A stretch of 64,000 nucleotides of DNA from the sequence record NC_007023.1; one strand, 5' to 3'. This document shows, piece by piece, positions 24,876 to 47,637 of this stretch. The position numbers and the translations under genes are program-made. The notes beneath the pieces were generated by a model, which was not told the DNA's origin, searched no databases, and was given only the letters and a program-made list of their open reading frames with translations. This DNA is from Escherichia phage RB43. The stretch's first letter is position 1. Each line of letters opens with the position of its first letter.

Positions 24876-25796
24876 ATGAAAATTGATTACGAATTGGTAG
24901 AAGGGTTCCGTGCTCTGCCTACTAAAGAACAGAAAGGCGCACTGGCTGACTACGCTCAAAGCACCTTTGAAGTAAAATTGAACAAACAAAAATCATTCGA
25001 TAACATGCTGGCTGATCTGGAAGCTGCTGTACCAGCGGAAGAAGAAAAACCGGAACTGCTGATTGATTCCCCAGAATCCGCGATCGTTTCGTACACTGGT
25101 AGCGTTGCAATGGATGAACCTGTTGTTAACGCTCCGAACATTCCTGATGTTGTTGTCGATGTGTCGCAGGACTTTATGGATTACGTCAAAGACGTTGCGC
25201 CGGAAGTGGCTGATCAGATTAAATTAGTCCCTGATGTTGTTGTCGATGTGTCGCAGGACTTTATGGATTACGTCAAAGACGTTGCGCCGGAAGTGGCTGA
25301 TCAGATTAAATTAGTCCCTGATGTTGTTGTCGATGTGTCGCAGGACTTTATGGATTACGTCAAAGACGTTGCGCCGGAAGTGGCTGATCAGATTAAATTA
25401 GTCCCTGATGTTGTTGTCGATGTGTCGCAGGACTTTATGGATTACGTCAAAGACGTTGCGCCGGAAGTGGCTGATCAGATTAAATTAGTCCCTGATGTTG
25501 TAGAAGCGTCTGTAACCGCTTCTGACGAGTCCAAAGCTGATATGGCATGGTTGGACGGGTTTAGCCCTACAATCGTTCTGATGGGGCGTAGCGCTCGTTC
25601 TAACGGCTATTATACGTGTCCCTGGTGGATCTACGATTGGATTAAGAAAAATCCAGATTGGTACAAAGATCCTGACCAGTGTCCACACTACAGCGCACGG
25701 GATACCCTGAAATCGCTGGTGTACTACATCAAACGTGATGGTCAAGTTACTGTGCGTGAAACGCGCAACAGCAGTTTCGATACCTTCAAATTTTAG
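24876..25796 (+). CDS. Hoc-like capsid decoration protein with C-terminal capsid-binding domain and internal 4 x 29-aa perfect tandem repeat
   Basis: C-terminal ...YYTCPWWIYDWIKKNPDWYKDPD...RDGQVTVRETRN resembles T4 Hoc capsid-binding domain (AYIWCGWWVMDEI...GKDW...DVQESRNGY) as recalled; location next to uvsW as for T4 hoc; RBS GGAGA. Confidence 0.6.
   Translation: MKIDYELVEGFRALPTKEQKGALADYAQSTFEVKLNKQKSFDNMLADLEAAVPAEEEKPELLIDSPESAIVSYTGSVAMDEPVVNAPNIPDVVVDVSQDFMDYVKDVAPEVADQIKLVPDVVVDVSQDFMDYVKDVAPEVADQIKLVPDVVVDVSQDFMDYVKDVAPEVADQIKLVPDVVVDVSQDFMDYVKDVAPEVADQIKLVPDVVEASVTASDESKADMAWLDGFSPTIVLMGRSARSNGYYTCPWWIYDWIKKNPDWYKDPDQCPHYSARDTLKSLVYYIKRDGQVTVRETRNSSFDTFKF
25143..25501 (+). repeat. 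perfect 87-bp direct tandem repeat, 4 full copies plus 11-bp partial, in-frame inside the Hoc-like gene
   Basis: Copies start at 25143, 25230, 25317, 25404; each encodes PDVVVDVSQDFMDYVKDVAPEVADQIKLV. Confidence 0.95.
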
Positions 25797-26243: not shown

Positions 26244-26287
26244 ATAGGTGAATAATGAATAAATAAAATCATGAATGTCTGAAAGAT

Positions 26288-26824
26288 TTGTCAGATGGTA
26301 AAGAAATCGAGAACGTTATATTCCTCGATATTGACGGCGTGTTAAATAATATGCGCTCTATGAAATTCGGTGAACATATGGACATCGAATGTGCGCGACA
26401 TCTACGCCGGATCGTCAACCATGCAAATTGTGATATCGTTGTTTCTTCAACGTGGCGCATTGGGAACACGACACACACCCTACGCGAAATCCTGTACCCC
26501 TGGGGCTTGTATCGCGTTATCGGTCGAACCTGTAGCAACATGGTTGGTAATTGTGTGCGTGGTGATGAAATAAAGGCGTGGATCGATACGTTCGGATGTA
26601 AGAACTACATGATCCTTGATGATGATTGTGATATGTTGCCAGAACAAAAAGATCACTTCGTCAGAACAGATCCTGAAATCGGGCTTACCGAAGAACAATC
26701 AACCTTTGCGATCCGCAATATATTTGGAGTAACAACCCCGTTTTGTCCTGAATGCAACGGCTATGGGCGCGTGAACCAATACGATAAATGCGGTAGCTGT
26801 AACGGTAAAAAATTGCGTCTATAA
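26288..26824 (+). CDS. HAD-superfamily phosphatase with C-terminal Cys-rich zinc-ribbon (apparent TTG start)
   Basis: N-terminal FLDIDGVLN (HAD motif I), SSTWR, ILDDD motifs; C-terminal CPECNGYG...CGSCNGKK; no in-frame ATG upstream of motif I. Confidence 0.6.
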   Translation: MSDGKEIENVIFLDIDGVLNNMRSMKFGEHMDIECARHLRRIVNHANCDIVVSSTWRIGNTTHTLREILYPWGLYRVIGRTCSNMVGNCVRGDEIKAWIDTFGCKNYMILDDDCDMLPEQKDHFVRTDPEIGLTEEQSTFAIRNIFGVTTPFCPECNGYGRVNQYDKCGSCNGKKLRL

Positions 26825-26827
26825 ATA
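26820..26827 (+). promoter_or_regulatory. T4-type late promoter -10 box (TATAAATA) upstream of second Hoc-like gene
   Basis: Exact TATAAATA about 25 nt upstream of ATG 26852. Confidence 0.5.
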
Positions 26828-26851
26828 CAGAAAAACTAAGAGGTTTCAATA

Positions 26852-27355
26852 ATGGCTACTGAAAAATGGACTACGGTTCACCCTATCCCGTGGCGTAACA
26901 CCAGCTTTACCTATCTTCCGTGGTGGATCTATGATATCATCGTTGCTGCTAATACGGCAGGTGGAGATTGGCGTGATTACGCAGAAGAAAAATATGCGAA
27001 AGAATTCGTCACGCTGAAACAAGCATACATCGACTAGACCGATGTTGATTTCATCGAATCTCGCAACGGCTACCTGTACAAACTCAGTGATTTTACTCCG
27101 GCTGATCCGGTTGTTACTATCACCCCGAAAACTGCCCCTGCTGATTTTAAAGTAGGCGATCCTGACCTTGCTGCAACCGATCTGTTTACTATCGATCCGA
27201 GCGGTACGGCTATGACTCTGACTGTGGATTCCTCTGGTCATGCGTCGATCGTTGGCGGTAAACTCCATGCTATAAGCGCTGGTGATGTTGTTGTAACGGC
27301 GACCTCCGGTTCTGTTACTGCAAACCTGACTGTAAATGTTAAAGTTGCTCCATAA
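26852..27355 (+). CDS. second Hoc-like gene: N-terminal capsid-binding domain interrupted by in-frame TAG (27035-27037), then Big_2-type Ig-like domain
   Basis: ATG 26852 to TAG gives 61 aa (VHPIPWRNTSFTYLPWWIYDII...GGDW...); same frame stays open to TAA 27353-27355 encoding ...FIESRNGYLYKL... plus Big_2-like domain; homology to Hoc spans the TAG. Confidence 0.5.
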
Positions 27356-27370
27356 CTAAGAAGGTAAAAC

Positions 27371-27871
27371 ATGCTTCTATTCGAATTCAATGATGTATTC
27401 GCGAAGTTTAGTGATGCAATTCAGGCAAAATTCGGCAAACGTCCCGAAAACATGACAGAAACAGAATACAATACTGCTGTTTCGTCCCTGGTTCGTACAG
27501 ATTTCTATGAAAAGCTGGCGATCGAGGTGTTGGGCTGGGACATGATGAAATGGGGTATGACTTATCGCGATCGCGAAGTTGGTTTCATTCTCGTCAATGA
27601 GGTTAAAAGCCCTCTGTGGGTAAACAACCAAAAAGTTGCATACATGGATAAGGTGTGTGCGGAAATGGGTATTGTGCGTCTGGATTTCTGGACGTGTAAG
27701 GATCTGAATGAACTGAAAGGTCATGCTTATCGTTGCCCTCTGATTTCTCGCAATGAGAAACATCGTCAAGCATGGGATAGCGCTGGCAAGTATCGCAGTG
27801 TATATCTGAATGATGACATGAACATCACTATTCAGGATGTGAACCGCGCCTTTGCGGATTACACACCATAA
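27371..27871 (+). CDS. hypothetical protein
   Basis: 166 aa ORF, RBS AAGAAGG, followed by terminator. Confidence 0.55.
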   Translation: MLLFEFNDVFAKFSDAIQAKFGKRPENMTETEYNTAVSSLVRTDFYEKLAIEVLGWDMMKWGMTYRDREVGFILVNEVKSPLWVNNQKVAYMDKVCAEMGIVRLDFWTCKDLNELKGHAYRCPLISRNEKHRQAWDSAGKYRSVYLNDDMNITIQDVNRAFADYTP

Positions 27872-27878
27872 ACAAAAA

Positions 27879-27906
27879 AGGGAACCGCAATGGTTCCCTT
27901 TCTTTT
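27879..27906. terminator. bidirectional rho-independent terminator
   Basis: GGGAACCGCAATGGTTCCC hairpin flanked by A-run and T-run; between convergent genes. Confidence 0.7.
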
Positions 27907-28367
27907 TACAGCTTTCTAACTTCTTTCAACGCTTCTTCTTTGCTACCAACGAAGAGGATCGCTTTTCCTCCCGCTTTCCTGAAAGGTAGTACCGCTTTCG
28001 CTCTGTCATCGAACAGTACACCCTGACCTGCATAGGCTGCTTTTTCGCCGCTGCTTTTGGTGTAGTGGAATTCAGGCAGATATCCTAACAGTTTAACAAG
28101 CGCTTTGCGTTTTTGTTCTGCAACTTCTTCGGAATTGTATTTACCGACACTGGTCAAGATCGCAACCTCGCCTAATGTTCTCATATGGCAGAACAGCGCA
28201 ACACCTTCTTCAATCGGTTTTAAATTTTCGTAGAAGTCGGTTTTAGATATTGCCTCTTTTGCCTTTTTGAGTTCATCCTGTGGCATTCTTGCTGGATCAC
28301 CATACATCGGTATGAAAGAACCTTCCCAATCAAACAGTACACCATCCATATCAAAGAAAAATTTCAT
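27906..28367 (-). CDS. HAD-family phosphatase, 5'(3')-deoxyribonucleotidase-like
   Basis: Starts MKFFFDMDGVLFDW (HAD motif I of the 5'-nucleotidase type); ...VLFDDR... near C-terminus; RBS GAGGAA. Confidence 0.6.
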   Translation of the reverse strand: MKFFFDMDGVLFDWEGSFIPMYGDPARMPQDELKKAKEAISKTDFYENLKPIEEGVALFCHMRTLGEVAILTSVGKYNSEEVAEQKRKALVKLLGYLPEFHYTKSSGEKAAYAGQGVLFDDRAKAVLPFRKAGGKAILFVGSKEEALKEVRKL

Positions 28368-28416
28368 ATCAATTCCTCGCTTTGTGTGTGCATCATATTC
28401 ATATATGTTCTCATTG

Positions 28417-29250
28417 TCAACCCCATGTATCGGTTTTGGGTGCGTATGCTGCAACTTTAGCAACCAATTCCTTATCAAGCTGGTCAATAGATTTCTGTGC
28501 TTTACCTTTTGACTTAACTTTGATGTAGTTAGACTTGACAACAAACATACCGCCTTTGTCAGATTTTTTGATCTCGCTATCGATACCAACTTTGTTAAAG
28601 CTGATCCAGATATCACCATCCATATACTGTTTCAGTGAATCGCCCATGTTCAGGATCTTAGCCATAGTAAGAGCGGCCCCTTCGTGGGTATCCATGAGGA
28701 TCTCTTTAGGAACCACACGGTCACGTTTCAGGTTCTGCTGCATAGCAATATGAACATCGTTCATTACCCAAACGATATGGATGTTTTCTTTATGGTATCC
28801 CAGCGTTTCAACGTCACGGGCAATGCTTGCCAGCTTGCTCATGCTTTTTAGGGTAACGTCGAAAATCAGGTTTGGTTTGCGGTCTTCTGGTGCTGCTGCA
28901 ATACCAGCATAAACACGCGCCTGGTTTTTGTTGGATACGTTGAAAACGTCTGCGATCACATGATGCAGGGTTGCCACGTTATCCGGGTTTTTCAGGTTCA
29001 TGGTTTTAACATCATGACCAGTTTTAGCTTTGATTTCTGCCGCCAGTTTGGTGCTACCCATTACCAGCTTTTTCAGTGCGTCAACGTCCAGTGTGATTCC
29101 TTCGATACCTAACAGTTTTTCGAGGGTAAAACCTTTACCGGAACCCGCACCGCCAGCCAGGATCACAACCTGACCAAATTTAGGATATGCCTTGCCGCCA
29201 AACGTAATCAACGCTTCGTCAAGGGATACAAAGTCTTTGAATGATTTCAT
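28417..29250 (-). CDS. P-loop NTPase, putative nucleotide/nucleoside kinase
   Basis: Walker A VVILAGGAGSGKGF; hydrophobic-D Walker B-like LIFDVT; 277 aa; RBS GGAG; immediately upstream of the HAD nucleotidase. Confidence 0.5.
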   Translation of the reverse strand: MKSFKDFVSLDEALITFGGKAYPKFGQVVILAGGAGSGKGFTLEKLLGIEGITLDVDALKKLVMGSTKLAAEIKAKTGHDVKTMNLKNPDNVATLHHVIADVFNVSNKNQARVYAGIAAAPEDRKPNLIFDVTLKSMSKLASIARDVETLGYHKENIHIVWVMNDVHIAMQQNLKRDRVVPKEILMDTHEGAALTMAKILNMGDSLKQYMDGDIWISFNKVGIDSEIKKSDKGGMFVVKSNYIKVKSKGKAQKSIDQLDKELVAKVAAYAPKTDTWG

Positions 29251-29362
29251 CTTAGAACTCCAGGGTTATTTTAATATATTTATTGACACCGTTTATTGGT
29301 TGGGTTTATAGTGAAGTTGTTCGACGGATAAGCCGGAAGAACTTAACCATAAGGTAAACATC

Positions 29363-30283
29363 ATGAAACTTGAATTAAACCGCTTCATCAAAGCCGCTGC
29401 TGCTGGCGACCAGTCAAAATACAAATCCCGTCGCGATACCCTGATTGACGATTTCTGTAATCTGCTGGGGTTCAAGCGCTGGCATACTCCGTCTATGCGT
29501 CCAGACTGTGATCCAAAATGGGATTACTTCAAATGGACTCCCCGCGATCGTGGTTATGTCGATAACGTCCGCGTAATGACATTCACTCATATGTACGCAA
29601 ATGCAATAATAGAAGTTGCCAAACGTAATAATTCTACGTACCCGAACGGGTGGAAGGTTGCAGAAGTCATTGAAACCCTGATGCAACTGCGCCGTGAATA
29701 TAAAGCTGGAATGATGATGCAACTGCGCCGTGAATATAAAGCTGGAATGATACGTAAATTGGAAGAACAATCCGAAAGACATGAATATAAAGAATGGTCT
29801 ATCGTCGCAAAATATCTGCTGAACATCACCTATTCGGTTTTCTGTCGCTTCGGAACAAAAGAAATCGGGTTCGGTTCTCATGATATCATTGCAGAAGCCC
29901 GTCATCGCCTGACATACGCGATCCTGAAAATTCAAAATTCCGGTGGTCTTGTTCTGGCTGCATTCTGTGATGAAATTGTGTACTACGGCGATCAGGTTGA
30001 AGTTGAAGGTGTTCACCACGAAAAATTCAACAAACTTGTGTTCGGACAATATAACAGCTATTCATACGGAAACGATATCCGCGTGATGATGCACCCGCGT
30101 ATTATGCTGGATATGGAAGGGTGGGAACCTGGACACGGGATCGGTGATATCGAAAGCCAGCGTGAACGCCGTGTTCGTTCTGTCGCAAAAGCTCGCGAAT
30201 TGATGACGGGTAGCCTTACTGATTACCTGTTCAGAACAAAAGAAGACGTTGAAAAAGAATTTGTTGACTTGTCGGGCGAATAG
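29363..30283 (+). CDS. hypothetical protein (contains 12-aa in-frame tandem duplication)
   Basis: 306 aa ORF; LMQLRREYKAGM duplicated. Confidence 0.55.
   Translation: MKLELNRFIKAAAAGDQSKYKSRRDTLIDDFCNLLGFKRWHTPSMRPDCDPKWDYFKWTPRDRGYVDNVRVMTFTHMYANAIIEVAKRNNSTYPNGWKVAEVIETLMQLRREYKAGMMMQLRREYKAGMIRKLEEQSERHEYKEWSIVAKYLLNITYSVFCRFGTKEIGFGSHDIIAEARHRLTYAILKIQNSGGLVLAAFCDEIVYYGDQVEVEGVHHEKFNKLVFGQYNSYSYGNDIRVMMHPRIMLDMEGWEPGHGIGDIESQRERRVRSVAKARELMTGSLTDYLFRTKEDVEKEFVDLSGE
29681..29752 (+). repeat. 36-bp direct tandem duplication (2 copies)
   Basis: ATGCAACTGCGCCGTGAATATAAAGCTGGAATG repeated with 36-bp period. Confidence 0.9.
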
Positions 30284-30350
30284 CGATAAGCTGTAATCAC
30301 TGAAAACAAGGAGATAACCATGAATACCATTCACTGCCGCAAAGAGTTCG

Positions 30351-30638
30351 TTGAGTTCTATCACGGATCATGTACTGCTGCCGGAATCGAAAGGCATGTT
30401 GTTACCTCCTTGTGCGTCTGAAACTCTGTCAGAGAAAGGCAGAAAGAAAAACTTAGACCGTGTTTTCTTCACCGCTGATATAGGTTTAGCCCGTATCTAT
30501 GCTGGAAGGGCTGCACGGTCAATCGGTGGTGATCCGGTACTGTATCGGGTTGTGTGTCCAGTTGACGCGGTATGTATGAACGACGACAAAGGCGCGAGTG
30601 TTTATCATGCTGCATGGGCTTTTTGTGAGGAAATATAA
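30351..30638 (+). CDS. hypothetical protein (TTG start in ORF track; alternative ATG at 30396)
   Basis: 95-aa ORF; overlaps a 33-codon ATG-initiated ORF (30320-30421) in another frame; start uncertain. Confidence 0.35.
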   Translation: MSSITDHVLLPESKGMLLPPCASETLSEKGRKKNLDRVFFTADIGLARIYAGRAARSIGGDPVLYRVVCPVDAVCMNDDKGASVYHAAWAFCEEI

Positions 30639-30775
30639 TGGAAATTTTGGTTCCTTTACTTGTTATTATGTTTATCGTGGTTTGGGTTATTGGTCCACTC
30701 ATTTTCATAGGTTATATCCTTTCAGAACACCAAAAATTTAACGAATGTTTGCGAAAAGGAATAAAATATGAATGA
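30638..30775 (+). CDS. small hydrophobic (membrane) protein, 45 aa
   Basis: ATG overlaps upstream stop (TAATG); translation MEILVPLLVIMFIVVWVIGPLIFIGYIL... is a single TM helix. Confidence 0.35.
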   Translation: MEILVPLLVIMFIVVWVIGPLIFIGYILSEHQKFNECLRKGIKYE

Positions 30776-30935
30776 TCGTGTTTTAGCAATTCTCGTTTTC
30801 CTTCTGGGGTATCGGGTTGAGGTGTTCGGTGGACACATGATGCTTAATGGTGACTTGACCGCAATTTGGATGGTTGCTGTTGGTGTTATGTTCACTTTCT
30901 TATCATTTGCGATTGTCAACGAGGCTACCCAATGA
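30768..30935 (+). CDS. small hydrophobic (membrane) protein, 55 aa
   Basis: ATG overlaps previous ORF; MNDRVLAILVFLLGY...IWMVAVGVMFTFLSFAIV two hydrophobic segments. Confidence 0.35.
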   Translation: MNDRVLAILVFLLGYRVEVFGGHMMLNGDLTAIWMVAVGVMFTFLSFAIVNEATQ

Positions 30936-31258
30936 AACTATTTCATGTAGTGTATAGCGGTATGGTTAATGTTGATGTTCCCTTGCTTTCCGTCGAAACG
31001 ATTGATACACTCGAAGGGAAGATCGGAAAACGTTTTAAAACTACCGTATCCGAAATCAGTACGGTGTTTGTTGACCATCCGTCAGATCTGGAAAATTTAA
31101 TCAACACTCTCGATGATTTACAAATCCCGTTTGCGGAAATTTTTCATCATCAATCGGGGCTGTATCTGATTGTGACATTTGTTCTAAAAAATGTTGACAG
31201 CAGAAATCCAGAAGTGCTAGATTTTATCCGTAACATTGATTCAAACAAAGGAAAGTGA
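30932..31258 (+). CDS. hypothetical protein
   Basis: 108 aa from ATG overlapping previous stop (ATGA); ORF track gives longer TTG-initiated version from 30866. Confidence 0.5.
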   Translation: MKLFHVVYSGMVNVDVPLLSVETIDTLEGKIGKRFKTTVSEISTVFVDHPSDLENLINTLDDLQIPFAEIFHHQSGLYLIVTFVLKNVDSRNPEVLDFIRNIDSNKGK

Positions 31259-31260
31259 TT

Positions 31261-31599
31261 ATGAAAATCGTTCAGCGTAATATCAGCGAAGTTAGCCAGG
31301 AAGAAAAAGTTCAGATCCATTTCAAATTCAATGATCTGAAACGTGGTTATGCAGAAATTGCCCGTGTTCATAAGTTGGACAATGGCGACATTTATATGAT
31401 TGTCCAAGAAATTGAACGAATCCGCGCTTTCCGTGCCGAAAACCCGAAAGTAAAACGTGTTCTTCGTCGTGTGTATGTGAATAAACATCGTAAGGCTGCG
31501 AAACCAGTTAAACCAAAACGCGAACCGCGTCCAGACAACAAACGCAAAGCAATTAACGGTGCTATGGCGCTGGCTTTCCAGGAAGCAGGTTTAGTGTAA
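31261..31599 (+). CDS. hypothetical protein with basic C-terminus
   Basis: ATG 31261 with RBS AAGGAAAG; Lys/Arg-rich tail (KHRKAAKPVKPKREPRPDNKRK). Confidence 0.5.
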   Translation: MKIVQRNISEVSQEEKVQIHFKFNDLKRGYAEIARVHKLDNGDIYMIVQEIERIRAFRAENPKVKRVLRRVYVNKHRKAAKPVKPKREPRPDNKRKAINGAMALAFQEAGLV

Positions 31600-31608
31600 G
31601 GGGTTAAC

Positions 31609-32136
31609 ATGAGTCGTAGAAATATGGAACGCTGGAATACTATTGTAACCAGCAGTATCAAACCAGTTGCGCCAGCGTTCAAGGAAGTTGTAGAAGAAAC
31701 TCCAGTTAAAACACAGACTGTTGTATCTTTGTGTGAAGAAGATTTAGAGCACCGTCGCCGTGCGAATCAAATTGAATTCGATCTGCGTATTGCCCGTTCA
31801 TACAACAGTAAAAACGATGATGCGCGTAGCCGTAACCTGCAATTTGCTCTTACGTTGAGCGATTGGACTGTGTTAATGAGTCAAACTACTTGTGCGTATT
31901 CCGGTAAGGTGTTTAGCACTCGCGGAGACAGCCCGAACTCTCGAACGATGGAACGTATTAACCCGATGTTGGGTTATACCCCAGAAAACACGATCGCAGT
32001 GACAAAAGCCGCTAACAGTGAAAAATCATCACTTGATGCGTTCATGAAGGGTTCTGTAATCCTTCCTGAAGTAAAACTGAAATTGTTACGCAAAGCCGCG
32101 TACCAAATTGAAAAACAATTGAAAATTAAAGGTTAA
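31609..32136 (+). CDS. hypothetical protein (possible degenerate HNH / His-Me-finger-like motif)
   Basis: 175 aa; ...CAYSGKVF...MERINPMLGYTPENTIAVTKAANSEK loosely resembles HNH core; weak. Confidence 0.45.
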   Translation: MSRRNMERWNTIVTSSIKPVAPAFKEVVEETPVKTQTVVSLCEEDLEHRRRANQIEFDLRIARSYNSKNDDARSRNLQFALTLSDWTVLMSQTTCAYSGKVFSTRGDSPNSRTMERINPMLGYTPENTIAVTKAANSEKSSLDAFMKGSVILPEVKLKLLRKAAYQIEKQLKIKG

Positions 32137-32140
32137 TATT

Positions 32141-33184
32141 ATGTTTGTGAAATATTCTTCTCTTACGAACCATTATGAAGGTAAATTCATCAATGGTGTG
32201 ATCATGAATGGTTTGACGGGCGGTGTGTGGGTTGCTCGTGAAAAGATCCACGGTGCTAACTTTAGTCTGATTACTTCTGACGGCGAAAGGGTTATTCCGG
32301 CAAAGCGTAGCGGTGAAATCCTTCCTACTGAACAGTTTTACGGTTGCGAACCTGTTGTTGCCCGATATGCCCCAGCAATCCGCAAACTGTGGGATGTCAT
32401 CAATACCGCACAACAGGTTAGCGGGATTTACGTTGATTCTCTGGTAATTCAGGTGTATGGTGAATTTGCGGGGCGCGGTGTTCAGAAAGATGTTGATTAC
32501 GGTGAAAAAGATTTCTACGTGTTCGATATCCGCGTAAATGGTAAATTCCTGCATGATAACATCGTTGCGGTGTATGCAAAAACTGTTGGCTTGAAAATGG
32601 CCCCGCTGTTAGCATACGGTACTTTTGACGAGATCCGAGCACTTCCGATCACGTTTGATTCAGTGGTTAACCTGGCGAACTCCGGCGCGATTCCTGCACA
32701 TAACGGGGTTGAACCTGAATTCAAAAACTTCATGACGCTGAAAGATGGTGAAGGTGAGAACATCGCAGAAGGTTTTGTTATGAAGCCCGTACACCCTGCT
32801 TTCATGCCGAACGGTGAACGTGTTGCAATTAAATGCAAAACGACGAAGTTTAGCGAGAAGAAAAACAAACAAGCGAACCGCTTCAATGCTCCGGCTGAAC
32901 TGTCGGAAAATGATAAAGTTAAACTGGATGTGTTCACCTGCTACCTGACAGAAAACCGCGTTAAAAACGTCCTGTCTAAAATTGACAGCACGAACCTTAC
33001 CGCGAAAGACTTCGGTCGCGTCATGGGGCTGACTGTACAGGATGCTCTTGAAGAAATCGAACGCAACTACGGACCGTTTATCGAACAGTTTGAAAACCCG
33101 ACGCTGGCGAAGAAAACTTTCACCAACGAAGCCTCAAGCCTGATTCGTACAAACTGGGGCGCAATCCTGAACAATGAATTTTAA
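32141..33184 (+). CDS. rnlB: RNA ligase 2 (RnlB)
   Basis: 347 aa; N-terminus ...KYSSL.NHY..KFI......GLTGG.WVAREKIHG.NFSLI (nucleotidyltransferase Lys motif) and ...KPVHPAFMPNGERVAIKCK..KFSEKK... match T4 Rnl2. Confidence 0.9.
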   Translation: MFVKYSSLTNHYEGKFINGVIMNGLTGGVWVAREKIHGANFSLITSDGERVIPAKRSGEILPTEQFYGCEPVVARYAPAIRKLWDVINTAQQVSGIYVDSLVIQVYGEFAGRGVQKDVDYGEKDFYVFDIRVNGKFLHDNIVAVYAKTVGLKMAPLLAYGTFDEIRALPITFDSVVNLANSGAIPAHNGVEPEFKNFMTLKDGEGENIAEGFVMKPVHPAFMPNGERVAIKCKTTKFSEKKNKQANRFNAPAELSENDKVKLDVFTCYLTENRVKNVLSKIDSTNLTAKDFGRVMGLTVQDALEEIERNYGPFIEQFENPTLAKKTFTNEASSLIRTNWGAILNNEF

Positions 33185-35042: not shown

Positions 35043-36473
35043 ATGCAAACTTTTAATGAACTGAATAGCATCATCACCTCAACCGATTCCTACAAAGTGT
35101 CTCACTGGATGCAGTATCCGCAAGGCACTGATGCAGCGATGTTCTATATCGAATCTCGCGGTGGTAAATTTGATGAAGTAGTAACCGCTGGCGTTAACTA
35201 CGTTGCGCGGGTTCTCGCTGAACCAATTACCATGAAGCAGGTTGAGTTAGCGCGGGTACTTTACCGTAAACACTTCGGAAAAGAGATCTTTAACTACGAA
35301 GGGTGGAAAAAGATTGCTGAACTGGGTTACACCCCTGTAATTTTCCGTGCGATCCCAGAAGGTACGGTGTTCCGGGAAAAATGCCGTGCGACTGTGTACG
35401 CCGAAAACGAATTCTCGTGGCTGGCTGGGTGGCTGGAGACAATGACGATTCGCGGTATTTGGTATCCGTCATCTGTAGCAACGCTATCGCGTGAGTGTAA
35501 AAAGGTTCTGGCACACTACCTGGATATGACTTCTGACCTTACTGGCGAAGCATATAACATCACACTGGGTACACGTCTGCATGATTTTGGGGCGCGGGGC
35601 GCGACCTCTGCTGAATCTGCTGGCATTGGTGGGCTGGCACACCTTTATAACTTCATCGGCACTGATACCGTAGAAGGGATGATTATGGCAATCAGCCTCT
35701 TTGCGGATTATCAAACACTGTTTGATGAAGTTGAAAACGTAGAAGTAGCTGGGGTTTCCATCCCTGCTCGTGAGCATTCAACTACGATTTCCTACGGTAA
35801 AGAAAACGAAGACGAAGCATATAAAAACAGCATTGAAATGTTCGGTGATGGGTTCTACGCTTGCGTATACGATTCATGGGACTACAAAGCCGCTGTTGAC
35901 CGGATCGATAGTTATAAAGAGAAAATCATTGCATCTGGCGGTGTGTTGGTAGTGCGTCCAGACTCAGGGGATATGATAGACAACATCATGTACACCTTGC
36001 GCAAACTGGGGCAAATCTTCGGATATACTGTCAACTCCAAAGGGTACAAAGTTCTTCATAACTCTGTTCGTATCATCCAGGGTGACGAGATCCACGGGCC
36101 TGAAACAATCAACCGTGTATTAAGCTGGATGGAAGCGAACAAATGGTCGAGCGAAAACATTGCGTTCGGTATGGGTGGCGGTTTGCTGCAAGAAGTTACC
36201 CGCGATACCCAGAAATATGCTGAAAAACTTTGCGCTATCCGTATCAACGGTGTGTGGAAAGGCGTTTACAAATGCCCGAAAGGTTCGGAATGGAAAAAGA
36301 GCAAGAAAGGTTTATTGATGACCATCACTAACGGGATGGAATTCAAGACAATCGATTCTCTCGAAGAATCTATTCCTGCTGGGTGGTTTGATGCGATGGT
36401 AACTTATTATGACAATGGTTATCTGAACAAAACTGACACTTTAGGGGAAATTCGTGAGCGTAGCCGGATTTAA
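35043..36473 (+). CDS. nadV: nicotinamide phosphoribosyltransferase (NadV/NAMPT family)
   Basis: 476 aa; N-terminal ...TDSYKVSHW...YPQGT..., GTRLHDFGARGATS, IRPDSGD, RIIQGDEI, FGMGGGLLQ motifs typical of NAMPT/NAPRTase family. Confidence 0.8.
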   Translation: MQTFNELNSIITSTDSYKVSHWMQYPQGTDAAMFYIESRGGKFDEVVTAGVNYVARVLAEPITMKQVELARVLYRKHFGKEIFNYEGWKKIAELGYTPVIFRAIPEGTVFREKCRATVYAENEFSWLAGWLETMTIRGIWYPSSVATLSRECKKVLAHYLDMTSDLTGEAYNITLGTRLHDFGARGATSAESAGIGGLAHLYNFIGTDTVEGMIMAISLFADYQTLFDEVENVEVAGVSIPAREHSTTISYGKENEDEAYKNSIEMFGDGFYACVYDSWDYKAAVDRIDSYKEKIIASGGVLVVRPDSGDMIDNIMYTLRKLGQIFGYTVNSKGYKVLHNSVRIIQGDEIHGPETINRVLSWMEANKWSSENIAFGMGGGLLQEVTRDTQKYAEKLCAIRINGVWKGVYKCPKGSEWKKSKKGLLMTITNGMEFKTIDSLEESIPAGWFDAMVTYYDNGYLNKTDTLGEIRERSRI

Positions 36474-36762
36474 TATCCGCGCCAACGATAACGGATCTGT
36501 AATCTTCTATAACAATCAGCCCCTTGTTGCTCGCAAGGGGCTTTTTTGTAAGTTAGTTGGGTATGGGTTCAAGTTGGAACAGGTGGATAATGCAACACTA
36601 AAAGAGATCGTGCGCATAGCCTATCTCCTGAAAGATAAGAAAGATGAACATAAGGCGGTTGCAATGCTGGAGAAATTGGGAGAAAATCATTGCTTCATCA
36701 TAAATCGTGGATACAAATACGATACAATCGCTTTATTTGAAAAAGGGCTTAGTGAACTATGA
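36454..36762 (+). CDS. hypothetical protein (GTG start)
   Basis: 102-aa ORF; SD AGGGGA 5 nt upstream of GTG; overlaps 3' end of nadV. Confidence 0.4.
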   Translation: MSVAGFNIRANDNGSVIFYNNQPLVARKGLFCKLVGYGFKLEQVDNATLKEIVRIAYLLKDKKDEHKAVAMLEKLGENHCFIINRGYKYDTIALFEKGLSEL

Positions 36763-37610
36763 ATTATTTGGGTGTGATACCTTACACGGGCAACAAACAG
36801 GATCTATTGCATAAGTTGTTTGAACTGTTTCCCGACCACCGACACTATCGTAGATTTGTCGATTGCTTCTGTGGTGGATTGAGCGTGTCGTTAAACGTTC
36901 CCAAACCAGTTCTAAGCAACGATTTCGATAAGACACTGATTGATGTATATAAGGTTCTTAAACGCGCTCCTGATCTCTCAGAGGTGCGAGAATTGATTGC
37001 TAAGAAGGGACTGAACAAAGAAAACAAAGATGCGTACCTGGCTTTTCGTGAAGAATACAACCAGCATCGCGATCCGCTGTGGCTGTACGTTCTGATCCTT
37101 CATTCATTCAGCAATGTCAACCGCACCAATGAGAAGGGAGAGTTTAACGCGCATTTTGGATACCGGACGATAAACGCATCAACGGTTAAGCGCTTTGAAC
37201 ACTTCAAGGCAAACGTAGCCGGAATTGAATTCACTTCTGGTTCTTACTCTGATATTGAAATCAGGGACACCGATTTTGTATACTGCGATCCTCCGTACCT
37301 GATTACGGATGCGGTGTATAATAAATTCTGGAATGCTGATCGCGAACGCGAGTTATACGCATTTCTTGACTCGCTTAACGAGCGGGGCATTTGGTTTGGA
37401 TTGTCCAACGTGACACACCATGCCGGAAAACAAAACGATATCCTGATTGAATGGATGAAGAAATACACCGTTCACAACCTGGATAAAAAGTATCTGTTAG
37501 GCCAGCATACAGAATCCTATGAGCAAAACAAAACTCAGGAGGTGTACGTGTGCAACTATCAGAAACGTGATGTAAATACATTCCCCTTAACACTCGATGA
37601 TTTAATGTAG
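36759..37610 (+). CDS. dam: DNA adenine methyltransferase (Dam)
   Basis: 283 aa; ...YTGNKQ.LL..L...FP....F.D.FCGGLSVSLNV..PVL.ND... and DPPY motif match T4 Dam. Confidence 0.9.
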   Translation: MNYLGVIPYTGNKQDLLHKLFELFPDHRHYRRFVDCFCGGLSVSLNVPKPVLSNDFDKTLIDVYKVLKRAPDLSEVRELIAKKGLNKENKDAYLAFREEYNQHRDPLWLYVLILHSFSNVNRTNEKGEFNAHFGYRTINASTVKRFEHFKANVAGIEFTSGSYSDIEIRDTDFVYCDPPYLITDAVYNKFWNADRERELYAFLDSLNERGIWFGLSNVTHHAGKQNDILIEWMKKYTVHNLDKKYLLGQHTESYEQNKTQEVYVCNYQKRDVNTFPLTLDDLM

Positions 37611-37616
37611 GTTAAC

Positions 37617-37889
37617 ATGTTTAAAATTTATGGTTATATTCCATCCGTTTATAATTGCGCTCCATGCCTGAACTGTAAGCGACTGCTGGACGCGAAAAAA
37701 CATGAATATGAATTCGTATCCGTTGCCGATTCCAAAGGCGAAGACGGGAAGCCGATCCTGAATGAATCGGTGATTGACGAACTCGAAGGACTGTTAGGAA
37801 CACGCCGGATGACCATGCCTCAGATTTTCCATGACGGGAAACACATTGGCGGGTTTGACCAACTTCGGGATTACGTTCGCACCCTGTGA
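37617..37889 (+). CDS. nrdC: thioredoxin/glutaredoxin NrdC-like
   Basis: 90 aa; MFKIYGY...C..C..AKRLL..KK..YEF...TMPQIF..G.HIGGFDQLR.Y matches T4 NrdC. Confidence 0.8.
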   Translation: MFKIYGYIPSVYNCAPCLNCKRLLDAKKHEYEFVSVADSKGEDGKPILNESVIDELEGLLGTRRMTMPQIFHDGKHIGGFDQLRDYVRTL

Positions 37890-37923
37890 TAAATAATGAC
37901 ACCTTACTTTGAATGGTGTTATT

Positions 37924-38406
37924 ATGCTGACGAAACGAATTACCAAAAAAGATTACCCCTCAATCAAGCAAGCTCTCTTTGACAAACAAGGGGGCTGCTG
38001 TGCTTTATGCAAGCGTCCTTTAGAGGGAGACATTGAAAAACATCACCTCGATCATGACCATGCTTTAGACGGCGAAAACGCCGGACGTGTGCGCGGCCTA
38101 CTGTGTAACCTATGCAACGGTACAGAAGGTATTGTAAAGCACAAATTTAACCGATCCGGTCTTGTGTCTCGTGATGTTGATTATATTGTCTGGTTGGAAA
38201 ACCTGCTTGCATATCTGAAACAAGATTATTCCGAAAACCGTATTCATGACAAATTCATACCAGATAAGGTAAAATGGTTTTCAAGACTTACCAAACCTGA
38301 TATGATTGCCGAAATGGTTTCTATGGGCTTCGAGTACGCCGAAAAAGACGAACGCAAAGCCTTAACCGCAAAATATAGAAAGCAATTAATGAAGGCAACG
38401 AAATGA
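37924..38406 (+). CDS. 49: endonuclease VII (gp49), Holliday-junction resolvase
   Basis: ...GGCCALCKRPL......HLDHDHAL.G..AG.VRGLLCNLCN..EG..KHKFNRSGL...VDY..WLENLL.YLK.DY..N.IH..F...K..FSRL matches T4 gp49; ORF track start 37909 is an alternative. Confidence 0.85.
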   Translation: MLTKRITKKDYPSIKQALFDKQGGCCALCKRPLEGDIEKHHLDHDHALDGENAGRVRGLLCNLCNGTEGIVKHKFNRSGLVSRDVDYIVWLENLLAYLKQDYSENRIHDKFIPDKVKWFSRLTKPDMIAEMVSMGFEYAEKDERKALTAKYRKQLMKATK

Positions 38407-38909
38407 ATGAAAAATATACGGAACTTGATGAACTTCTCAAGTGCGTAAGTGTAGACATTTGTAGCGGTGTTGTTACGTGGACTAAGCCAACAAACCGAAA
38501 AATTTGTATAGGCCAATCTGCTGGTGTTGTTGATAAAAACGGGTATACTGTTATCGGGTTCAAAGGGAAGAAATTCTTCCGACACCACGTTATATGGTAT
38601 GCGATTCATGGTACACTACCAGAAAAACCGTATGTTATTGATCATGTTCACGGAGTTGAACGTGGCGATGGGGTTTCGAACCTACAAAAGATTACACAAC
38701 AACAAAACATCATGAAGAAAAAGGTTCAGAGAAATAATAAATCTGGACATAAAGGCGTACATTGGTGCAACACATACAACAAATGGGTTGCAAAAATAAA
38801 GTTCAATGGAAAATCAATTTATATCGGAGAGTATGACGATTTGAATGATGCTATCAACGCAAGAATTCGCAAATCTCAAGAACTCTTTGGTGAGTTTGGA
38901 GAAATATAA
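38403..38909 (+). CDS. free-standing HNH homing endonuclease with AP2-type DNA-binding domain
   Basis: HHVIWYAIHGTLPEKPYVIDHVHGVERGDGVSNL (HNH) then GHKGVHWCNTYNKWVAKIKFNGKSIYIGEYDDLNDAINAR (AP2-like); inserted between gene 49 and nrdD. Confidence 0.75.
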   Translation: MNEKYTELDELLKCVSVDICSGVVTWTKPTNRKICIGQSAGVVDKNGYTVIGFKGKKFFRHHVIWYAIHGTLPEKPYVIDHVHGVERGDGVSNLQKITQQQNIMKKKVQRNNKSGHKGVHWCNTYNKWVAKIKFNGKSIYIGEYDDLNDAINARIRKSQELFGEFGEI

Positions 38910-41032
38910 TGCTTGTAGAAAAACGCGACGGCAAAACCGTTGATTTTGATAAAGAAAAAATCCGTATTGCTGTAGAAAAAGCTGGCGGGACTATGACGGA
39001 TGCTGATGCCGCAATCATGCTGGTTCAGTACAATCAGATCCGCGATGGTAGCGCAATGAAGATCGCCCGTATCCAGGAACTCGTTGAAGAATCCCTGATG
39101 AAAACGAACCCAGCGGTCGCCCGTGCATACATCGAATATCGTCACGATCGCGATATTGCCCGTGAACAGAAAAGTAAGCTGTTCAAAGATATCTCCGGTA
39201 TGGTGAATCTGTCCAACAAAGAGATCACCAACGAGAACGCGAACAAACACGCAAGGGTATTCCCGACACAGCGCAATTTGCTGGCGGGTATTGTAGCGAA
39301 GCATTTCGCCCGTAATCATATCCTTCCGAAACATATCGTAGAAGCGCATGACTCCGGCGACATCCACTATCATGATCTGGATTACAGCCCGTTCACGCCA
39401 TACACAAACTGCTGTCTGGTGGATTTGAAAGGTATGCTGGCTAATGGCTTCAAGATGGGTAACGCAGACATCGAACCCCCGAAATCAATCGGTGTTGCGA
39501 CTGCTCTTATGGCACAGATCACCGCACAGATTGCTTCTCACCAGTACGGCGGGACAACCTTTGCAAACGTGGATAAAGTGCTGGCTCCGTATGCAGAAAT
39601 GACATATGAAAAGCATGTTAAGGATGCTAAAAAGTATAAAATTTCGTTAGATCGTACATATGCGATGGAAAAGACTGAAAAAGATGTGTTTGATGCTTTC
39701 CAATCGTATGAATACGAAGTTAACACGCTGCATACTGCCAACGGACAAACACCTTTCGTTACTATTACTTTCGGTACTGGTACGGGAATGTTTGAACGGA
39801 TGATCCAGAAAGCTATTCTGAAAAACCGTATCCGTGGCCTGGGTAAAAAAGGTATTACTCCGGTATTCCCTAAACTGGTTATGTTCATGGAAAAAGGCAT
39901 TAACCTTGATCCAGAGGATCGCAACTATGACATCAAACAACTGGCTCTGGAATGCGCTTCAAAACGTATGTACCCAGATATCATTAGTGCATATAATAAC
40001 CGTCGCATCACTGGTTCTAGCGTTCCTGTATCTCCTATGGGTTGTCGCAGTTTCCTTAGTGTGTGGCATGATGATAACGGTAATGAAGTTCTGGATGGAC
40101 GTAATAACCTGGGTGTGGTGACAATCAACCTCCCGCGTATTGCTCTTGAAGCACAATCGCAGGAAGATGAAGACGCACATGACGCATTCTGGCGTATCCT
40201 TGATGAACGTCTGGAACTGTGCTTTGAAGCCCTGATGACTCGCATCGATAGCCTACGCGGTGTTAAAGCCAGTGTAGCCCCGATCCTGTACACGGAAGGT
40301 GCATTCGGTGTTCGTCTGAATCCTGATGATGAAATCCTGGAACTGTTCAAAAATGGGCGTAGCTCTATCAGTCTGGGTTATATCGGATTGCATGAAACGC
40401 TGTTAATGTTCGGCTCCGGTCAACATCCGTTCGATCGTATTGGCTCTCAAAATGTGGGTAAACTGATTCTGGAATATCTACGCGCCGCGACCGAGGCATG
40501 GAAAAAGAAAACTGGATTTGGTTTCAGTCTGTATTCAACCCCTGCCGAATCTCTCTGCCATCGCTTCTGTAAGCTGGACTTTGAGAAGTTCGGGAGTGTG
40601 AAAGGGATCACGGATAAAGGCTGGTACACAAACAGTTTCCATCTGGACGTAGACCGCACAGTGACACCGTTCGAGAAAATCGACTATGAAGCCGATTATC
40701 ATTACATTGCATCTGCTGGTCATATCAGTTATGTCGAATTCCCTGATATGAAAAACAACCTGCAAGCCCTGGAAAAAGTCTGGGATTATGCAATGGAAAA
40801 ACTGGACTATTTCGGAACTAACCTTCCGGTCGATAAGTGCTTTGAATGTGGTGCTGATGATGAATTCACTCCTACAGAAGACGGTTTCCACTGTAAACAT
40901 TGTGGTAATCACGATCCGGCAAAAATGAGCGTTACACGCCGTACATGCGGTTATCTGGGTGCTCCTGCTGTCCGTGGTTTCAACGAAGGTAAGAACAAAG
41001 AAATGATGCACCGCACTAAGCATCAAAATTAA
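38909..41032 (+). CDS. nrdD: anaerobic ribonucleoside-triphosphate reductase NrdD
   Basis: 707 aa; ATP-cone N-terminus (VEKRDGK.V.FD..KI), conserved catalytic blocks, C-terminal CxxC...CxxC zinc site and glycyl-radical region; uninterrupted (no intron). Confidence 0.92.
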   Translation: MLVEKRDGKTVDFDKEKIRIAVEKAGGTMTDADAAIMLVQYNQIRDGSAMKIARIQELVEESLMKTNPAVARAYIEYRHDRDIAREQKSKLFKDISGMVNLSNKEITNENANKHARVFPTQRNLLAGIVAKHFARNHILPKHIVEAHDSGDIHYHDLDYSPFTPYTNCCLVDLKGMLANGFKMGNADIEPPKSIGVATALMAQITAQIASHQYGGTTFANVDKVLAPYAEMTYEKHVKDAKKYKISLDRTYAMEKTEKDVFDAFQSYEYEVNTLHTANGQTPFVTITFGTGTGMFERMIQKAILKNRIRGLGKKGITPVFPKLVMFMEKGINLDPEDRNYDIKQLALECASKRMYPDIISAYNNRRITGSSVPVSPMGCRSFLSVWHDDNGNEVLDGRNNLGVVTINLPRIALEAQSQEDEDAHDAFWRILDERLELCFEALMTRIDSLRGVKASVAPILYTEGAFGVRLNPDDEILELFKNGRSSISLGYIGLHETLLMFGSGQHPFDRIGSQNVGKLILEYLRAATEAWKKKTGFGFSLYSTPAESLCHRFCKLDFEKFGSVKGITDKGWYTNSFHLDVDRTVTPFEKIDYEADYHYIASAGHISYVEFPDMKNNLQALEKVWDYAMEKLDYFGTNLPVDKCFECGADDEFTPTEDGFHCKHCGNHDPAKMSVTRRTCGYLGAPAVRGFNEGKNKEMMHRTKHQN

Positions 41033-45154: not shown

Positions 45155-45600
45155 TGAACTTTGACCGCATCTATAACATGGATGTGGTCAACGGTAAAGG
45201 AATCCGTGTGGTGTTGTTTGTAACCGGATGCAATCATAAGTGTGATGGTTGCTACAACAAAAGCACATGGAATCCACGCAACGGTAAACCGTATACCGAA
45301 GAGACTGAAAACGAGTTGATCAGACTCCTTTCAAATCCTCATGTGGACGGATTGACGCTTACAGGTGGCGATCCGTTTTACCGCACCAATCATCCTGTAC
45401 TGTTAAAACTGCTCCAGCGCGTCCGTAACGAGTTGCCTGGTAAGAATGTATGGGTTTGGACGGGGTACACCCTCGAAGCCTTACAGAGTGATACAGAACG
45501 TTGTAAGCTACTTCCTTTTATCGATGTTCTGATCGATGGGAAGTATGAAAAGATTTACCGACTAAGAAACCGTTTCGCGGTTCGGACAATCAGCGATTGA
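45154..45600 (+). CDS. nrdG: anaerobic ribonucleotide reductase activating protein NrdG (radical SAM)
   Basis: 148 aa; ...DRIY..D.VNG.G.RVVLFVTGC.HKC.GCYN.STWN.RNG......LTLTGGDP...WTGY...IDGKYEK... matches T4 NrdG with CxxxCxxC cluster motif. Confidence 0.9.
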   Translation: MNFDRIYNMDVVNGKGIRVVLFVTGCNHKCDGCYNKSTWNPRNGKPYTEETENELIRLLSNPHVDGLTLTGGDPFYRTNHPVLLKLLQRVRNELPGKNVWVWTGYTLEALQSDTERCKLLPFIDVLIDGKYEKIYRLRNRFAVRTISD

Positions 45601-45640
45601 TTGAGTTTCAAAAGGATTCAATCGAAATTAAAAATATCGC

Positions 45641-45668
45641 TTGACCTGGTTGGTGATTCTGATAAGAT
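45641..45668 (+). promoter_or_regulatory. putative sigma70-type early promoter
   Basis: TTGACC, 16-nt spacer, TAAGAT; upstream of ATG 45710. Confidence 0.4.
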
Positions 45669-45709
45669 GTACCTCGTAACAAAACATAAACTAATTGAGA
45701 GATAATATT

Positions 45710-46636
45710 ATGATCCTGAATTTCAAAACCCGTAAAGAAGCCCGTGAATACTGCTGGAAATGGGGCATTCCCCTGAAAAGCATCACCAAAACCGCTAACA
45801 GTTCAAATCTTCCGTGGCGCGTGACTACCGAAGAAACCATGTTTAAAACTGGTCGTGATTATGAACTGGTTGATGTTGAAGGGTTTACCAATAACGGCAA
45901 AAACAAAGCCAACGTTACCCAGGCAAAACAGATCAAACAACACCTGAACGGTGTGATCACTATCATCAGTAAAGACGGCGACAAGTTCGAATTCAAATCG
46001 CCTGAATGCGTAGTGATGGACATCGTGCGTCCGTGGGAAGCGGTATTCTTCAAAGAGGTCAAACCGACCGTCAATGCGAAACCACGTAGCGCTAAACCTG
46101 CACCTGTTCAAGCTGACACGGTTGATGCGGTAGTTGATGATCTGGATGCGGCGCTGGATGGGGGCGTAAACCTCGCACCTGTTGAAGCGGTAGCACAGGA
46201 AGCATGGCCTACCCTCTTTGTGTGCAACATCCCGTATGTTCTGATTGATGAAGCGGGTTTCATTGCTGCACATGGCGCAAATAAAACAATCGTTGATTTC
46301 ATGAAAGAAAATAACGGTGTTTTGACATTTGAATGTGTTGATTCCGATGGTGATGCTACTATCAAAACATTCAAGCGCAATATTCCGATGGTGATGCACA
46401 GCGAACGTAAATATTTCCGCGAACTGGGTACTGGTAAAGTTCCTGCTCCGGCTGTACAGGTTGTTGATGTAACCGAAGAAGTTAACAAGAACCTTCATGA
46501 ACGTAAGATCATTGAAGCTGCACAGAAAGTTGAAGACGCGTTAGCAGAACATCAAAAAGCGATCGTAGTCGTACAACAAGCCGCTCGTGCTGTTCGCGAA
46601 GCTGCACAAGAACTTGCGCTCCTGTCTCGTAAGTAA
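45710..46636 (+). CDS. hypothetical protein
   Basis: 308 aa from ATG 45710; followed by hairpin terminator. Confidence 0.55.
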   Translation: MILNFKTRKEAREYCWKWGIPLKSITKTANSSNLPWRVTTEETMFKTGRDYELVDVEGFTNNGKNKANVTQAKQIKQHLNGVITIISKDGDKFEFKSPECVVMDIVRPWEAVFFKEVKPTVNAKPRSAKPAPVQADTVDAVVDDLDAALDGGVNLAPVEAVAQEAWPTLFVCNIPYVLIDEAGFIAAHGANKTIVDFMKENNGVLTFECVDSDGDATIKTFKRNIPMVMHSERKYFRELGTGKVPAPAVQVVDVTEEVNKNLHERKIIEAAQKVEDALAEHQKAIVVVQQAARAVREAAQELALLSRK

Positions 46637-46644
46637 TACAATTT

Positions 46645-46674
46645 GGGGGTGCTGAAAAGCATCCCCTTTTTATT
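46645..46674 (+). terminator. rho-independent terminator
   Basis: GGGGTGCTGAAAAGCATCCCC hairpin followed by TTTTTATTT. Confidence 0.65.
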
Positions 46675-46685
46675 TGAGGTATATT

Positions 46686-47399: not shown

Positions 47400-47637
47400 G
47401 TGTTATGGATGTATCGAGGCACAAAAGCTACTTAACGAAAAAGGGATAGAATATCATTTTTATCCCGTTCTGAAAGAAGCAAAAAATGATTTAGGCTTTG
47501 AATACGATCGACCACGTATCGAAGAGTTAGCAAAACGGGCACGACAACGCAGTTTGGCGTTCCAGTATCCGAGAATTTTTGTCGATAATGTTCTTATCGG
47601 CGGTTATATGCAACTGAAACAACTTATTGGTGACTAA
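47359..47637 (+). CDS. glutaredoxin-like protein (NrdH/Grx family)
   Basis: 92 aa; MKVEIYG.P.N..KCYGC..A..LL...GIEY......RIFVDNVLIGGY..L... has CxxC and Grx-like fold signature. Confidence 0.65.
   Translation: MKVEIYGIPENIHKCYGCIEAQKLLNEKGIEYHFYPVLKEAKNDLGFEYDRPRIEELAKRARQRSLAFQYPRIFVDNVLIGGYMQLKQLIGD

Follow-up and report, generated by a model that had tools for sequence, protein, structure and literature searches.

Within a 64,000-nucleotide stretch of the Escherichia phage RB43 genome (NC_007023.1; hereafter, the window), a P-loop kinase (RB43ORF241c) and an NT5C-type, that is, 5′(3′)-deoxyribonucleotidase-like, HAD phosphatase (RB43ORF240c) form a two-gene operon, and the two are genuinely coupled: their adjacency exceeds chance because it recurs in other phages and because the two domains are elsewhere fused into one protein. 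We tentatively read the pair as a module that acts on free nucleotide-type substrates, independently of the RNA ligase 2 (Rnl2) encoded nearby. A sequence-only reading of the window had placed the kinase, two HAD phosphatases and Rnl2 in one neighbourhood, either as a split analogue of T4 polynucleotide kinase-phosphatase (Pnkp, or PseT) working with Rnl2 or as a deoxynucleoside monophosphate (dNMP) kinase/nucleotidase pair. All four genes are present (Table 1), and natural fusions in both orders bear out the proposal that the kinase and a HAD belong together in a Pnkp-like architecture. Both HADs are real as well, although a third, HAD-like gene had been missed. The neighbourhood as a whole survives for the kinase and its adjacent HAD, not for Rnl2 and the second HAD, whose proximity is limited to the genus and belongs to an ancestral backbone.

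To assess this coupling, we surveyed 87 viral loci with a kinase homologue, 9 from this phage group and 78 from outside the genus. In all 9 loci of Pseudotevenvirus and close relatives such as KP15, the gene immediately downstream of the kinase is the HAD; in RB43 it starts 49 nucleotides downstream on the same strand, in the order first claimed. Outside the genus, a HAD is directly downstream of the kinase in five loci (L027, L028, L029, L031 and L057), directly upstream in one (L067), and 64–68 nucleotides downstream in L011 and L012 (context dsbA...rIIA–rIIB) and in L013. Fusions with the HAD at the N terminus occur in L033–L035, where Pfam recognizes NT5C and Zeta_toxin in one open reading frame (ORF), and the reverse fusion, kinase then HAD, occurs in protein P0169, the HAD domain of which is 36% identical to the RB43 HAD (E = 4 × 10−20). 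A related HAD was found within 10 kb of 22 of the 78 kinase loci, compared with 4 of 78 control loci (P = 1.6 × 10−4), and was adjacent or fused in 9 of 78 compared with 0 of 78 (P = 0.003); the controls were 78 loci outside the genus carrying a ‘Swiss-army-knife’ (SAK) HAD, and these P values are rough since the loci are not phylogenetically independent. NT5C was the most frequent Pfam family among 82 kinase-flanking genes (52 non-redundant loci). Among cultured phages, per-genus record counts were equal for kinase and HAD (Klebsiella, 115; Aeromonas, 21; Enterobacter, 20; Cronobacter, 18; Citrobacter, 13; Escherichia, 7), and in Aeromonas phage AS-zj the two genes lie ~61 kb apart.

The kinase matched the Pfam Zeta_toxin profile (PF06414) at 30.7 bits (cut-off, 22.3), over residues 104–199 only, and most of its relatives match this profile too; it also matched PHROG 5268, a family of unknown function. 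Structural matches were led by AvrRxo1 (13.8, with 201 residues aligned), Zeta toxin (12.4) and the kinase of Clostridium thermocellum Pnkp (12.0), followed by PezT (11.0), T4 Pnk (10.8), Pnkp1 (9.8), PSTK (9.6), mammalian PNKP (9.1) and the nucleoside monophosphate (NMP) kinases (8.8 or less). The sequence-only reading had proposed placing the kinase by profile, and profile–profile comparison gave Zeta toxin (a sequence identical to 1gvn_B) at E = 2.7 × 10−4 and a probability of 42%, compared with E = 6.9 × 10−3 and 6% for T4 PseT; the NMP and dNMP kinase families (adenylate, thymidylate and T4 gp1) were not matched. In the Zeta alignment, the Walker A motifs coincide, the putative catalytic aspartate D57 (within LDVDALK) falls on Zeta D67, and D131-x-T133-x-K135 falls on E116-x-T118-x-R120. 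Searching the PDB with the single kinase sequence gave no match, and the family profile gave no significant match there, with marginal ones at E ≥ 0.02 (Pnkp1, mycoplasma deoxynucleoside kinase and dephospho-CoA kinase); in NCBIfam, neither the kinase nor any of the three HADs had a match. The Walker A motif reads G33-GAGSGK39-G40, with the nearly invariant G40 in place of the usual Ser/Thr; the β3 motif is NLIFDVTLK and the lid is N173-x-K-R176-x-R178. At the position of GTxR, the substrate motif of Zeta toxins, the kinase has V-T133-L-K135, keeping the Thr and a basic residue and losing the Gly and Arg. In the Zeta/AvrRxo1/polynucleotide-kinase (Pnk) clade, the γ-phosphate of ATP is transferred to a hydroxyl group on the sugar of a substrate that contains a nucleotide, with an Asp as general base. 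On the strength of the structural and profile comparisons, and given no significant PDB sequence match, we place the kinase in this clade as a divergent member, somewhat nearer to the Zeta side and typical of no characterized family.

The phosphatase matched phrog_2643 (‘5'-3' deoxyribonucleotidase’; E = 2 × 10−55). The features expected of an NT5C (PF06941) member are all present, including the DMDGVL form of motif I (D6-M-D8-GVL), motifs II–IV (II, ILTS73; IV, D120-D121) and a capped HAD fold, with a helical C1-type cap at approximately residues 10–50; being capped, it is not a cap-less DxDGT 3′-phosphatase domain of the T4 Pnkp kind. NT5C-type enzymes hydrolyse 5′- or 3′-monophosphates of free (deoxy)nucleosides, and across the HAD superfamily capped enzymes act on small molecules and cap-less ones, such as Pnkp, on macromolecular ends. 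Among mammalian enzymes, the 5′(3′)-deoxyribonucleotidases cdN and mdN (NT5C family) form substrate cycles with deoxynucleoside kinases. The RB43 HAD resembles them in fold, cap, DMDGVL motif I and the possession of a kinase partner, but it is shorter (153 residues) with a reduced cap, and its partner is not of the deoxynucleoside kinase or thymidine kinase type. The missed third gene is a catalytically dead paralogue, also matched by phrog_2643 (E = 2 × 10−54) and kept across the genus; it is convergent to the active copy, with which it shares a terminator, and might serve, as a pseudo-enzyme, in binding or regulation.

The cap is our main reason for favouring a nucleotide-sized substrate, and the capped nucleotidase fold together with the Zeta/AvrRxo1 affinity of the kinase leads us to favour free nucleotides in particular. 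The kinase would phosphorylate one sugar position of such a substrate and the HAD would strip a phosphate from another position or from another nucleotide, with the net effect that the nucleotide pool would be reshaped or salvaged during infection (for example, nucleosides or 3′-phosphorylated nucleotides might be converted or salvaged, or one nucleotide trimmed while another is charged). A fused kinase and phosphatase is sensible only if the two act on different positions, as in the 5′-kinase/3′-phosphatase Pnkp, or on different molecules. The repair of RNA breaks would be left to the canonical PseT and RnlA elsewhere in the genome. From these comparisons we infer that the substrate is a small molecule, in which direction the chemistry runs and what physiological role the module plays. 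Since PseT, a gp1 dNMP kinase and Tk are all present in RB43, the module fills no gap left by these enzymes: with an intact PseT beside RnlA and cd, we rejected it as a substitute for a missing Pnkp, and with gp1 and tk homologues present we likewise rejected the kinase as a substitute for a missing dNMP kinase or thymidine kinase. The earlier suggestion of a kinase/nucleotidase pair for nucleotide metabolism fits better than end healing, though not with the kinase as a classical dNMP kinase, since it matches no NMP or dNMP kinase family. An assignment of the kinase to a family such as the adenylate or thymidylate kinases and of the HADs to sugar phosphatases, which had been named as grounds for abandoning the original idea, did not emerge, and that idea is not refuted.

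Several observations weigh against a free-nucleotide module. At the majority of kinase loci no HAD is adjacent, which means that the kinase can act alone; kinase and HAD fused in either order is exactly the architecture of Pnkp and PNKP; and the best PDB sequence match of the kinase family profile, non-significant as it is, is Pnkp1. The RB43 HAD itself falls below the Pfam NT5C cut-off (19.1, compared with 24.8), which its relatives pass, and one kinase relative bears a C-terminal HD domain that would suit either a nucleotidase or an end-healing phosphoesterase. Finally, were the kinase and the phosphatase to work on a single position of one metabolite, the result would be a futile cycle.

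Some of these points bear on an alternative that we consider unlikely, in which the pair is a second polynucleotide end-healing system, parallel to PseT and RnlA, with the kinase phosphorylating the 5′-OH ends of RNA or DNA and 3′-phosphates being removed by the HAD (or by the SAK-type HAD), so that breaks are made ready for Rnl2. Like T4 PseT/Pnkp and mammalian PNKP, the system pairs a P-loop kinase of the same clade with a DxD HAD, with relatives fused in both orders, and the D-x-x-[KR] (catalytic Asp), [DE]-x-T and N-x-K-R...V-P (lid Arg) motifs of the kinase align with T4 PseT; the RB43 module also sits between a SAK-type RNA-repair HAD and rnlB, L013 has an Rnl2 gene 1.5 kb downstream of its kinase–HAD pair, and the HD domain on one relative is compatible with end healing. 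Against this, the RB43 genes are split, the kinase is nearer to Zeta/AvrRxo1, and the HAD partner is of the capped NT5C type, whose cap would exclude macromolecular substrates. RB43 moreover already has a full-length PseT, a true orthologue that shares 39% identity with the T4 protein across 301 residues (E = 3 × 10−54), keeps all kinase and HAD motifs, and adjoins an RnlA homologue and cd ~95 kb from the module. Outside the window, homologues of RnlA, PseT and dCMP deaminase are grouped on a single strand (45204–49161 of RB43 record HE858210.2), and this cluster is likely the true tRNA-repair cluster of the phage. Ligase linkage is not conserved: outside the genus, 1–2 of the 78 kinase loci contain an Rnl2-like gene closer than 10 kb, no more than control loci do, and in RB43 Rnl2 is 2.9 kb away on the opposite strand with several ORFs intervening. 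The position of rnlB is ancestral, and the SAK-type HAD carries a stop at codon 4 in the RB43 sequence. Of the systems compared, Pnkp is the one that the module most resembles in its logic (kinase plus DxD phosphatase), yet two defining features of Pnkp, a cap-less HAD and association with a ligase, are missing, and the proposal of a split T4 Pnkp analogue serving Rnl2 is correspondingly weakened.

Zeta and PezT are kinases of the 3′-OH of UDP-N-acetylglucosamine (UDP-GlcNAc), and AvrRxo1 is a 3′-kinase of nicotinamide adenine dinucleotide (NAD). It is quite improbable, in our estimation, that the RB43 kinase is a host-directed enzyme of this type, modifying either UDP-GlcNAc, so that MurA is blocked and the wall weakened ahead of lysis, or NAD, yielding 3′-NADP, with the HAD limiting or reversing the reaction or serving a separate role. 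The top structural matches, the above-threshold Zeta_toxin match and the aligned residues described above favour such an activity, and a role in weakening the cell wall has been proposed for Zeta-like kinases of phage polyvalent proteins (PMC5512222). In ten marine viral contigs, the gene directly upstream of the kinase (~36 nucleotides, same strand) encodes a SleB-like cell-wall hydrolase (L046, L053, L055, L060, L076, L079, L080, L082, L085 and L087), and a lysozyme gene is nearby in phage CC2; the ten loci are syntenic, however, and so are probably one clade and not independent cases. In two long predicted proteins the kinase is combined with cytidylyltransferase-like or NUDIX domains, but they look like several genes read through. 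The RB43 kinase differs from Zeta/PezT and AvrRxo1 in having no antitoxin or chaperone gene (no epsilon/PezA-type gene adjoins it, the upstream gene being divergent and of unknown function and the downstream gene being the HAD), in its Walker A GKG instead of GK[ST], and in VTLK for GTxR, and its family has in addition a conserved motif at the N terminus, LITFGGKAYPKFG, and a β-rich region at the C terminus. It is also phage-encoded, highly conserved and partnered with a HAD of nucleoside-monophosphate type; its conservation across very different hosts, together with P-loop inteins, would suit core nucleotide metabolism better than a weapon specific to one host. Nor does NAMPT, found in 1,984 phage records compared with 259 for the kinase, co-occur specifically with it.

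A bolder version, which we regard as a long shot, is that the pair constitutes a new phage system shifting or toggling a phosphate on a nucleotide-derived metabolite of importance to infection, such as NAD (to 3′-NADP, as with AvrRxo1), a defence signalling nucleotide or the deoxynucleosides produced by deoxynucleoside triphosphate-depleting defences. By far the least probable account is that there is no module at all, merely unrelated accessory genes that are chance neighbours in a hyperplastic region of a T4-like genome; the hoc–rnlB stretch is indeed variable among T4-like phages and solitary kinase loci are the majority, but for the kinase–HAD pair it is contradicted by the two fusion orders, by adjacency in three or more different genomic contexts and by the equal record counts among cultured phages, and it is the best description only of Rnl2 and the SAK-type HAD relative to the kinase. 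Two further links were considered and are not supported. One, still conceivable, is NAD salvage via NAMPT (35043–36473), which is near the kinase only in this genus; the other is salvage of 3′-NMPs released by an SNase-type nuclease, which neighbours the kinase in a single syntenic clade (20 loci, all without an adjacent HAD) and has no homologue in RB43.

The kinase family is large: a word-indexed search gave 2,497 proteins and an exhaustive one 803 clusters at 50% identity, and identity is ~50% between enterobacterial and marine phages. The 259 cultured phage records that carry it include therapeutic Klebsiella, Enterobacter and Cronobacter phages, and all are annotated as hypothetical. Across 72 diverse members, G33, G38, K39, G40, D55, D57, K60, P126, N127, D131, T133, W161, N173, R176, R178 and K246 are invariant or nearly so, and Walker A ends in GKG, with no Ser/Thr after the Lys. 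Inteins typically occupy conserved sites in replication and nucleotide-metabolism proteins; here, inteins with Hint and LAGLIDADG homing endonuclease domains split Walker A between G36 and S37 in at least 9 of 150 listed representatives (P0136, P0140, P0165, P0178, P0194, P0207, P0215, P0218 and P0240). Our literature searches found no functional study of the family, and RB43ORF241c itself was tabulated among novel ORFs in 2006 as ‘Zeta toxin’ with E = 0.36 (PMC1524935). In Vibrio phages KVP40 (KVP40.0065; L183, 3992–5437) and EniLVp02 (L184, 3824–4810), a kinase homologue immediately follows gene 55, which encodes the late sigma factor; the KVP40 protein is only 25% identical and has an extra C-terminal ~280 residues of unknown fold.

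Candidate regulatory signals flank both genes of the operon (Table 1), although promoter-like sites are no more numerous overall in the region than expected from shuffled sequence. Upstream of the kinase, AATAAATA at 29277–29284 matches 7 of 8 positions of TATAAATA, the T4 late-promoter consensus, making it a putative late promoter. The divergently transcribed ORF beyond it (29363–30283; phrog_7439) is genus-specific and of unknown function, and contains a perfect 36-nucleotide tandem duplication at 29679–29751 (MQLRREYKAGM twice).

Table 1 Features of the kinase–HAD locus and its neighbours in the RB43 window.
Feature	Coordinates	Strand	Details
P-loop kinase RB43ORF241c	28417–29250	minus	277 residues; Walker A GGAGSGKG
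NT5C-type (5′(3′)-deoxyribonucleotidase-like) HAD phosphatase RB43ORF240c	27906–28367	minus	153 residues; FDMDGVLFDW
Catalytically dead HAD paralogue	27371–27871	plus	Motif I FEFNDVF; motif II S/T lost; motif IV DD to SR
Bidirectional intrinsic-terminator-like hairpin	27874–27904	both	Closes the kinase–HAD operon and the convergent gene 27371–27871
Candidate sigma-70-like promoter match	28392–28420	minus	TTGACA-17-TATGAT, 11/12; overlaps kinase stop, just upstream of HAD
Kinase upstream intergenic region	29251–29362	minus	GGAG Shine–Dalgarno at 29258–29261
RNA ligase 2 (rnlB)	32141–33184	plus	TIGR02307 equivalog, 262.6 bits (cut-off 197.15); neighbour, not part of the kinase module
HAD_SAK_2 (‘Swiss-army-knife’ RNA-repair-type HAD, PF18143)	26255–26824	plus	100.9 bits (cut-off 27.5), E = 1 × 10−28; neighbour

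Fifty-nine related phages of Klebsiella, Enterobacter, Cronobacter, Citrobacter and Escherichia share the gene order of the region. The ligase is as originally identified, with an adenylyltransferase domain and an Rnl2 C-terminal domain (PF09414 and PF18043 both match) and 46% identity to T4 RnlB. Comparison of the T4 order (rnlB–24.2–24.3–hoc–inh–segE–uvsW) with that of RB43 (uvsW–inh–...–hoc-like–...–srd–rnlB) places rnlB at its ancestral T4 position, so the kinase and HAD are inserts in the variable hoc–rnlB stretch. Within 10 kb of the kinase, Rnl2, HAD_SAK_2 and NAMPT occur in the 9 loci of this phage group and otherwise only as sporadic neighbours (L096, a weak match in L086, and L013); the proximity of Rnl2 and the SAK-type HAD to the kinase is thus genus-limited and follows the conserved T4 backbone, and a functional link is not supported.

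The second HAD, described by the sequence-only reading as a zinc-ribbon phosphatase at 26288–26824, is a clear HAD_SAK_2 member with invariant D14, D16, S53/S54 and D111/D112 and, distinguishing it from the SAK-type HADs of predicted RNA-repair systems, a C-terminal DnaJ-type CxxCxGxG zinc ribbon; its true start, however, is at 26255, followed by an in-frame stop at codon 4 (MNK*, 26265), and the TTG at 26288 is a possible restart. The family has been predicted by comparative genomics to be an RNA 3′-phosphatase (PMC7824862, PMC9503650), and the literature searched held no experimental demonstration of its function. As a ligase partner it was rejected, there being no consistent linkage within 10 kb in 80 viral loci (Rnl2-like, 5; Rnl1-like, 2; PseT, 2) and rare proximity to a ligase or kinase.

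Relative to the RB43-GVA isolate and RB16, the window has four disruptive differences, which could be real laboratory-strain mutations or errors in the older sequence: the codon-4 stop in the SAK-type HAD (26265), a codon-62 stop in the hoc-like gene at 26852–27355 (27037), a +1 insertion truncating ORF 30351–30638 (30393) and a 1-nucleotide deletion truncating a DprA-like gene (33274). The prohead-protease inhibitor gene inh (24876–25796) is 261 nucleotides longer than in those two phages through a perfect 87-nucleotide tandem repeat (25143–25501; 4.1 copies of 29 residues each). Downstream of the region, NAMPT and genes at 36759–41032 (Dam methyltransferase, glutaredoxin, endonuclease VII, an HNH-AP2 homing endonuclease and NrdD) make up a typical T4-like accessory and nucleotide-metabolism set; NudE, 57B and Tk.4 homologues were also found in RB43.

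Together, these results point to a genuine, widespread and uncharacterized two-enzyme module, concrete and testable, that is not the phage’s Pnkp, and they correct the database labels ‘polynucleotide kinase’ and ‘zeta toxin’ for the kinase family, which rest on weak similarity. The module could prove to be ordinary nucleotide salvage or something new, and knowledge of its substrate could bring to light either a new step in the nucleotide metabolism of phages or a second route of RNA/DNA end healing. Were the pair instead to toggle a phosphate on a nucleotide-derived metabolite, it would represent a new counter-defence or pool-protection chemistry, in which a Pnkp-like build is directed at a small-molecule target.

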